Shown piece by piece: positions 62,820-62,866 of a stretch of DNA of 64,000 bases (positions are counted from its first letter, which is position 1; each line of letters begins with the position of its first letter). The translations under genes and the position numbers were made by a program. The notes below the pieces were generated by a model. It searched no databases and was not told the DNA's origin. It saw only the letters and a list, made by a program, of their open reading frames with translations. Origin of the DNA: Escherichia coli (GTDB lineage: Bacteria; Pseudomonadota; Gammaproteobacteria; Enterobacterales; Enterobacteriaceae); the NCBI RefSeq assembly GCF_003334335.1, contig NZ_QOWQ01000018.1. One strand, given 5' to 3'.

Positions 62820-62864
62820 GACTCCTCCATACTGAAAGTGAACTGACAGCCAAATGGAGGAGTC
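62820..62864 (+). promoter_or_regulatory. 11-bp perfect inverted repeat (GACTCCTCCAT ... ATGGAGGAGTC) enclosing the grxB Shine-Dalgarno sequence
   Basis: Arms at 62820-62830 and 62854-62864; GGAGG at 62856-62860 lies 6 nt upstream of the grxB GTG start. Confidence 0.45.
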
Positions 62865-62866
62865 AC

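Follow-up and report, generated by a model that had tools for sequence, protein, structure and literature searches.

The inverted repeat between mdtH and grxB of Escherichia coli is made up of two working grxB signals with complementary sequences: on one side the spacer and -10 element of the promoter, on the other the Shine–Dalgarno (SD) region. In the normal grxB mRNA the ribosome-binding site is free, and the hairpin plays no part in its regulation. The stem is possible only on RNAs begun upstream, namely mdtH read-through RNA and RNAs with the 5' ends that RegulonDB gives at -48/-49. On the best reading, which draws on analogy with the fold-back inhibition of IS10 and IS50 and is given about an even chance of being right, the hairpin would serve as an insulator of grxB against read-through. 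If the hairpin is functional, its mechanism is read-through-specific occlusion of the ribosome-binding site, which is already known and not new.

All coordinates refer to the window, the whole stretch of 64,000 nucleotides of E. coli DNA that was analysed (Table 1). The genes flanking the repeat had been named from the letters alone as mdtH and grxB, and both identities are correct, the window corresponding to the E. coli mdtH-grxB locus in 5426/5426 complete genomes. All 5426 complete E. coli genomes contain a match to the 261 bases around the hairpin, and in O157:H7 and O104:H4 strains the identity is 100%. Of the 5426 genomes, 3844 contain the exact 70-mer of the window (62800-62869) and 732 the exact one of K-12. 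K-12 MG1655 has T at 62827 (NC_000913.3 ~1124094) where the window has C. This base is at -13 of the grxB promoter, a sigmaS-selective position, and the K-12 T gives a U.G wobble in the stem. The two genes are separated by 63 nt, within which a terminator scan found no good terminator; the first terminator-like site with a good T-tract downstream of mdtH is the one that follows grxB.

Table 1. Features of the mdtH-grxB locus in window coordinates.
Feature	Position	Strand	Basis and remarks
mdtH, MFS efflux pump	61595..62803	+	ORF list; annotation in K-12 and EDL933; transcription towards grxB; stop TGA 62801-62803
-35 TTGATA of main grxB promoter	62805..62810	+	Promoter scan; positions -35 to -30
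GATACT, candidate -10 of a weak second promoter	62807..62812	+	Inferred; RegulonDB ends 6-7 nt downstream; below promoter-scan threshold
Upstream arm TGACTCCTCCAT	62819..62830	+	Promoter -21 to -10: last nine spacer bases and CAT of the -10
-10 CATACT of main grxB promoter	62828..62833	+	Promoter scan; spacer 17 nt; TSS 7 nt downstream
Hairpin loop, 23 nt	62831..62853	+	Rest of the -10, discriminator GAAAGT, TSS, first 14 nt of the 5' UTR
Main grxB transcription start site (TSS), G	62840..62840	+	Cappable-seq; inside hairpin loop; 5' UTR 27 nt
Downstream arm ATGGAGGAGTCA	62854..62865	+	mRNA +15 to +26; SD GGAGGAG 62857-62863
grxB, glutaredoxin 2	62867..63514	+	GTG start; ORF list and annotation
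Intrinsic terminator 3' of grxB	63527..63554	+	Terminator scan; 12-bp stem, then T run

The original prediction described a perfect inverted repeat of 11 bp with the grxB SD in its downstream arm. The repeat is present and perfect, with a length of 12 bp and not 11 (12/12 positions complementary), and the placement is as described: GGAGGAG lies in the downstream arm, 3 nt 5' of the GTG, and CCTCC in the upstream arm. The downstream arm ends 1 nt 5' of the GTG. RNA folding of 62815-62870 also bears out the predicted hairpin, with the 12-bp stem at -21.9 kcal/mol as both the minimum-energy and the centroid structure. Dinucleotide shuffles of the same segment gave -10.1 +/- 2.4 kcal/mol (z = -4.9), and 0/200 were as good; the same stem is still predicted in RNA contexts of 100 to 230 nt. 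It is the sole perfect inverted repeat of at least 12 bp with a loop of 3-60 nt within the 64-kb window. As 25% of dinucleotide-shuffled windows contain a perfect repeat of at least 12 bp (mean 0.36 per window), the repeat by itself is not statistically compelling. Its non-trivial features are its placement on the SD and its retention in other genera.

An Rfam scan of 62300-63700 with E up to 10 found no family at the gathering threshold. The best sub-threshold hits, rdlD (20.4 bits; gathering 50, E = 0.33) and mir-186 (19.5 bits; threshold 70), both have E > 0.3 and are chance matches. The GTG start itself lies within a small 6-bp stem, CGUGAA / UUUACG (62866-62885), that is predicted in the primary mRNA and in longer RNAs. 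A short ORF from ATG 62854 (58 amino acids, out of frame with grxB) was considered and rejected, the ATG being CTG or CAG in many genera.

The position of the TSS determines which RNAs carry both arms. Cappable-seq of O157:H7 EDL933 detected one TSS for grxB (gene 7955), at 1570960(-), in 8/8 conditions and 27 nt from the start codon (PMC10469882 Table S5). In the EDL933 sequence (CP008957.1), which does not differ from the window over this region, the grxB start is at 1570933; the base at 1570960, the G of GAACTG, corresponds to window position 62840, 7 nt after CATACT. Because this G lies in the loop, the upstream arm is absent from the main grxB mRNA, which cannot form the hairpin; its 27-nt leader carries the downstream arm only. 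For K-12, RegulonDB v10.5 gives TSS distances of 29, 48 and 49 nt for grxB (tabulated in PMC10469882). The grxB promoter and TSS were already known from RegulonDB and the EDL933 data set. The only grxB entry in Mendoza-Vargas 2009 is a RACE primer, and the ROSE supplement does not mention grxB.

The promoter belongs to the sigma70 family and has sigmaS-type features, with the arrangement TTGATA-17-CATACT, a TSS 7 nt after the -10 and TC at -14/-13. The upstream arm includes its spacer motif CTCCTC (62822-62827), to which the -14 T and -13 C belong. The extended -10 consensus for sigmaS is TCTATACTTAA, with T at -14 and C at -13. Correspondingly, TCCATACTGAA at 62826-62836 matches 9/11 consensus positions, including -14 T and -13 C, and the grxB discriminator is A/T-rich. 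The grxB promoter differs from sigmaS-type promoters in having C rather than T at -12, in the T that K-12 has at -13, and in a conserved CTCY at -18 to -15 that is not known to belong to any described sigmaS element. Dependence of grxB on sigmaS and ppGpp has been reported: PMC5807413, citing Potamitou 2002, describes its control as mainly by sigmaS and ppGpp, and RNA polymerase ChIP occupancy is consistent with such control (PMC4066584). The half-life of grxB mRNA in MG1655, ~26 min, was termed an extreme case in a re-analysis of rifampicin time series (PMC10349824). So long a half-life is unusual in an mRNA whose leader is 27 nt (window 62840-63554).

RNAs begun further upstream behave differently in folding models. 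By partition-function folding, the predicted cost of freeing 62855-62869 is 5.2-11.6 kcal/mol in RNA from 62840 and 18.8-22.7 kcal/mol in RNA from 62819 or from within mdtH. On these predictions the stem would strongly block initiation on RNA begun upstream and on no other. Sequestration of the grxB SD, as originally proposed, therefore holds in part: the stem is stable, with a predicted opening cost of ~19-23 kcal/mol where both arms are present, and the main mRNA from G62840 lacks the upstream arm. Modulation of translation of the main grxB mRNA does not hold, as both arms would be needed in the regulated mRNA and a TSS at 62840 excludes the upstream one. The hairpin resembles SD-sequestering 5' UTR hairpins such as the rpoS leader and RNA thermometers in that an anti-SD pairs with the SD and start region. 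Those systems, however, have both arms within the mRNA under control and respond to a trigger, an sRNA or temperature, that opens the stem. The anti-SD arm is missing from the main grxB mRNA, and a stem of -22 kcal/mol is too stable to act as a thermometer.

Two sources of RNA with both arms can be named. The mdtH TSS was detected in EDL933 in 8/8 conditions (PMC10469882), and mdtH transcripts, meeting no terminator before grxB, would give a putative read-through RNA with both arms. A weak start at 62818/62819 is possibly another source. The RegulonDB ends at 48 and 49 nt correspond to window positions 62819 and 62818, the base (first base) of the stem, and could reflect either a weak second promoter or a processed end; starts at -48/-49 were not detected in the EDL933 Cappable-seq in 8 conditions (PMC10469882). 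Among the papers searched, none dealt with the grxB leader, an mdtH-grxB transcript or the hairpin.

It is proposed that on upstream-initiated RNA the 12-bp stem buries the SD and would silence the grxB cistron. Synthesis of glutaredoxin 2 would then depend entirely on RNA from the sigmaS/ppGpp-controlled grxB promoter and be shielded from transcription of mdtH. The proposal presumes that read-through RNA is present in meaningful amounts, that the stem silences its grxB cistron and that this silencing has been selected. Its benefit is questionable, since expression of mdtH is expected to be weak compared with that of grxB. A wider formulation is that grxB translation is gated by the promoter of origin, with a promoter-embedded anti-SD silencing RNA started upstream, and that this element has been kept with co-evolving flanks throughout the Enterobacteriaceae; it may be correct, although we lean slightly against it.

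The precedent comes from transposons. Davis, Simons and Kleckner reportedly found in 1985 (Cell 43:379) that IS10 and IS50 transcripts from outside promoters carry a stretch from 5' of the transposase TSS, which folds back over the ribosome-binding site. In the fold-back inhibition of IS10/Tn10 and IS50/Tn5, as at grxB, one arm covers the ribosome-binding site and the other precedes the gene's own TSS. The grxB start at G62840 likewise falls between the arms (62819-30 and 62854-65), leaving its own transcript translatable, and entering transcripts would carry both arms and are predicted from folding to be translationally silent at grxB. The two cases differ in that grxB is a chromosomal housekeeping or stress gene beside a co-directional neighbour and not a transposase gene. 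In addition, the upstream arm of grxB doubles as promoter spacer and -10, and the silencing of read-through RNA is here a prediction from folding.

Conservation was examined by scanning one genome per species and comparing the window with the best 80 of 300 grxB loci, all in Enterobacteriaceae or Erwiniaceae (81 sequences). The loci of E. fergusonii and E. albertii lie outside the best 80 of 300 and could show intermediates of a TGA/TCA change in Escherichia. In this set (best 80 of 300 loci and the window), CATACT is invariant in 81/81 sequences, TTG lies exactly 17 nt 5' of it in 80/81 (locus L042 is 1 nt out of register), and CTCYTC stands directly 5' of CATACT in nearly all 81. The whole of CTCYTC at -18 to -13 (62822-62827 in the window; L003-L082) is almost invariant in both families among the best 80 of 300 loci, including species with a divergent rimJ. 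Presumably only its -14 and -13 bases are explained by known sigmaS determinants, so the remainder may be a regulator site or a spacer element.

The 23 Erwiniaceae loci among the best 80 of 300 keep the promoter motif with an SD of only AGGAGA, a start codon that is mostly ATG and a leader of 52-79 nt. Twelve of these 23 (best 80 of 300 loci) lack mdtH, and 11 of the 12 have a divergent rimJ upstream; CTCTTC-CATACT is invariant in the Erwiniaceae with a divergent rimJ upstream (among the best 80 of 300 loci), where that orientation makes read-through impossible. Because it is kept in Erwiniaceae that have neither mdtH nor an extended downstream arm, the upstream-arm core is conserved for its part in the promoter, whether or not read-through occurs. 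The cores of both arms are constrained for other reasons, which counts against the insulator reading.

Among the Enterobacteriaceae of the best 80 of 300 loci, 57/59 have mdtH as the immediate upstream neighbour, in the same orientation and at a distance of 62-84 nt; the start codon is GTG in 59/59, and the downstream arm is (A/C)TGGAGGAG in the 59. The distance from the -10 to the start codon ranges over 31-48 nt across this family (best 80 of 300 loci). The original prediction had pointed to conservation in other Enterobacteriaceae as a check: a helix of 8-15 bp is found in almost all of the 59 (best 80 of 300 loci), and several lineages have uncompensated mismatches. Folding of the putative read-through RNA places the SD in a helix with the promoter motif in 54/59 Enterobacteriaceae (best 80 of 300 loci), with P(unpaired) <= 0.01.

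Complementarity also reaches into the flanks, between promoter spacer positions -19 to -24 and the spacer from SD to start codon, which neither signal obviously constrains. In the 59 Enterobacteriaceae (best 80 of 300 loci), the mean contiguous extension of the helix past the conserved cores is 2.65 bp. Controls gave 1.80 bp when partners were permuted among species (0/2000 reach 2.65), 1.29 bp when the upstream flank was shuffled and 0.24-1.65 bp in slid registers. By pair counting, 80.4% of cells are paired in Enterobacteriaceae (best 80 of 300 loci). The covariation score is 0.139 vs 0.084 +/- 0.008 for shuffled sequences (0/500), a control inflated by relatedness, and vs 0.054-0.079 for slid partners.

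Individual changes on both sides of the helix can be traced among the best 80 of 300 loci. TGA/TCA arose in Escherichia, and GTT/AAC, together with the loss of one base from the SD spacer, arose separately in the Cedecea clade and in Siccibacter turicensis. Further flank complementarity, of (C/T)GTTT to AAAC(G), is present in Klebsiella and Superficieibacter. Counter-examples in the same set (best 80 of 300 loci) are an uncompensated change at -14 in 6 Enterobacteriaceae species, GGAGGAG-T opposite T in Buttiauxella and CCC flanks in Kosakonia. The covariation rests on ~3-5 independent events (best 80 of 300 loci), and the sequence comparison gives modest support to selection on the helix itself. 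Only two Enterobacteriaceae loci of the best 80 of 300 lack an upstream mdtH: L042, a metagenome-assembled genome with a 3.4-kb contig, and L055. L042 is also the only Enterobacteriaceae locus (best 80 of 300) in which CTCYTC is wholly lost (ATCAAC), and its helix is gone too. As a single case it fits the read-through idea; L055 lacks mdtH yet keeps the helix.

The serious rival to the insulator reading is coincidental complementarity. On that account a pyrimidine-rich spacer, CTCCTC, followed by CAT happens to be complementary to the extended SD ATGGAGGAG, each is conserved for its own job, and the hairpin was never selected and rarely forms. Such a coincidence is less likely than insulation and still quite conceivable. 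It would accommodate the TSS in the loop, the frequency of comparable repeats in shuffled windows, the mismatched genera, and the invariance of the upstream core even where no co-directional gene lies upstream and the SD arm is short (both among the best 80 of 300 loci). Against it, flank complementarity tracks the indels (GTT/AAC, GTTT/AAAC, TGA/TCA) and exceeds the permutation and slid-register controls, and the SD region of Enterobacteriaceae is conserved over 8-9 nt, more than an SD needs (both in the best 80 of 300 loci). That the hairpin instead marks or protects the 3' end of mdtH mRNA, as a weak terminator or as a stop for 3'-to-5' exonucleases after Rho-dependent termination or processing in the untranslated part of grxB, is improbable, although a stable stem does lie 16 nt past the mdtH stop. 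Folding of 81 species (best 80 of 300 loci and the window) for a conserved terminator at the mdtH 3' end gave no consistent stem or U-tract, and thus no other conserved 3' structure. From general knowledge of Rho, a masked grxB SD would also leave read-through RNA untranslated and open to Rho. The hairpin shares with Rho-independent terminators a stable stem-loop just 3' of a stop codon, but it has no U-tract (the next bases are CGTGAAGCTATAC and the tail is CGTGAAGCTA), its loop is 23 nt long, and it encloses promoter sequence and the TSS of the following gene. The terminator scan likewise found nothing at the hairpin, in agreement with the original view that it is not a simple mdtH terminator. 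A stem of this kind has no need of an SD, and no mdtH or grxB 3' end is listed in the part covered of the 3'-end mapping supplements of a preprint (10.1101/2020.07.18.207399). Protection of the mdtH 3' end is compatible with the insulator model.

A strict 5' UTR hairpin, which would tune grxB translation through a minor transcript beginning exactly with the stem at 62818/62819, appears less probable again. The RegulonDB distances of 48 and 49 nt, the correct spacing of GATACT as a -10 and the predicted opening cost of ~20 kcal/mol speak for it. The EDL933 TSS lies only at 27 nt in 8 conditions, however, and the putative second promoter (P2) is weak, with ~7/12 consensus matches by eye. The final T of its -10 is absent outside Escherichia among the best 80 of 300 loci (GATACC in Salmonella and Citrobacter, and no GATAC- in most other genera), and no trigger is known that would open a -22 kcal/mol stem. 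Least probable, and by a wide measure unlikely, is cleavage at the hairpin by RNase III or another processing activity, or binding of a dimeric regulator to the repeat as a DNA palindrome. Here the perfect, intergenic inverted repeat is set against a stem too short for the enzyme and the lack of an Rfam family match. RNase III needs roughly two helical turns, a duplex of ~20 bp, and the 12-bp stem is flanked by mismatches, which makes the RNase III site of the original prediction unlikely. The palindromic protein-binding site was rejected, as the spacing of the arms varies by genus (best 80 of 300 loci), unlike that of a fixed dimer site.

If the insulator reading is true, a stress gene that lies 63 nt past an unrelated efflux-pump gene, with no terminator between them, would stay under its own sigmaS/ppGpp control, and promoter sequence would double as an anti-SD against foreign transcripts. 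The mechanism of insertion sequences would then extend to ordinary chromosomal gene pairs. The grxB element would be the equivalent, on a chromosome, of fold-back inhibition in transposons, and closely spaced co-directional genes with no intervening terminator may perhaps be served in this way more generally. A genome-wide search for further cases would be easy, the target being a TSS enclosed by an inverted repeat that contains an SD. If the stem is non-functional, the locus is a caution that a striking SD-sequestering hairpin in DNA can be irrelevant when the transcript starts inside it. Either way, reporter fusions or annotations that assume a long grxB leader would be misleading.

Two further structures were noted. 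The Erwiniaceae leader (L060-L082, among the best 80 of 300 loci) has a 7-bp stem-loop, GGGTGAC / GTCACCC, ~20-45 nt 5' of the grxB ATG; it shows compensatory changes in 5/7 pairs and is absent from the short Escherichia leader. Elsewhere in the window, an A/T-rich imperfect inverted repeat at 20857-20910 has 25-nt arms that are 80% complementary and a 4-nt loop.
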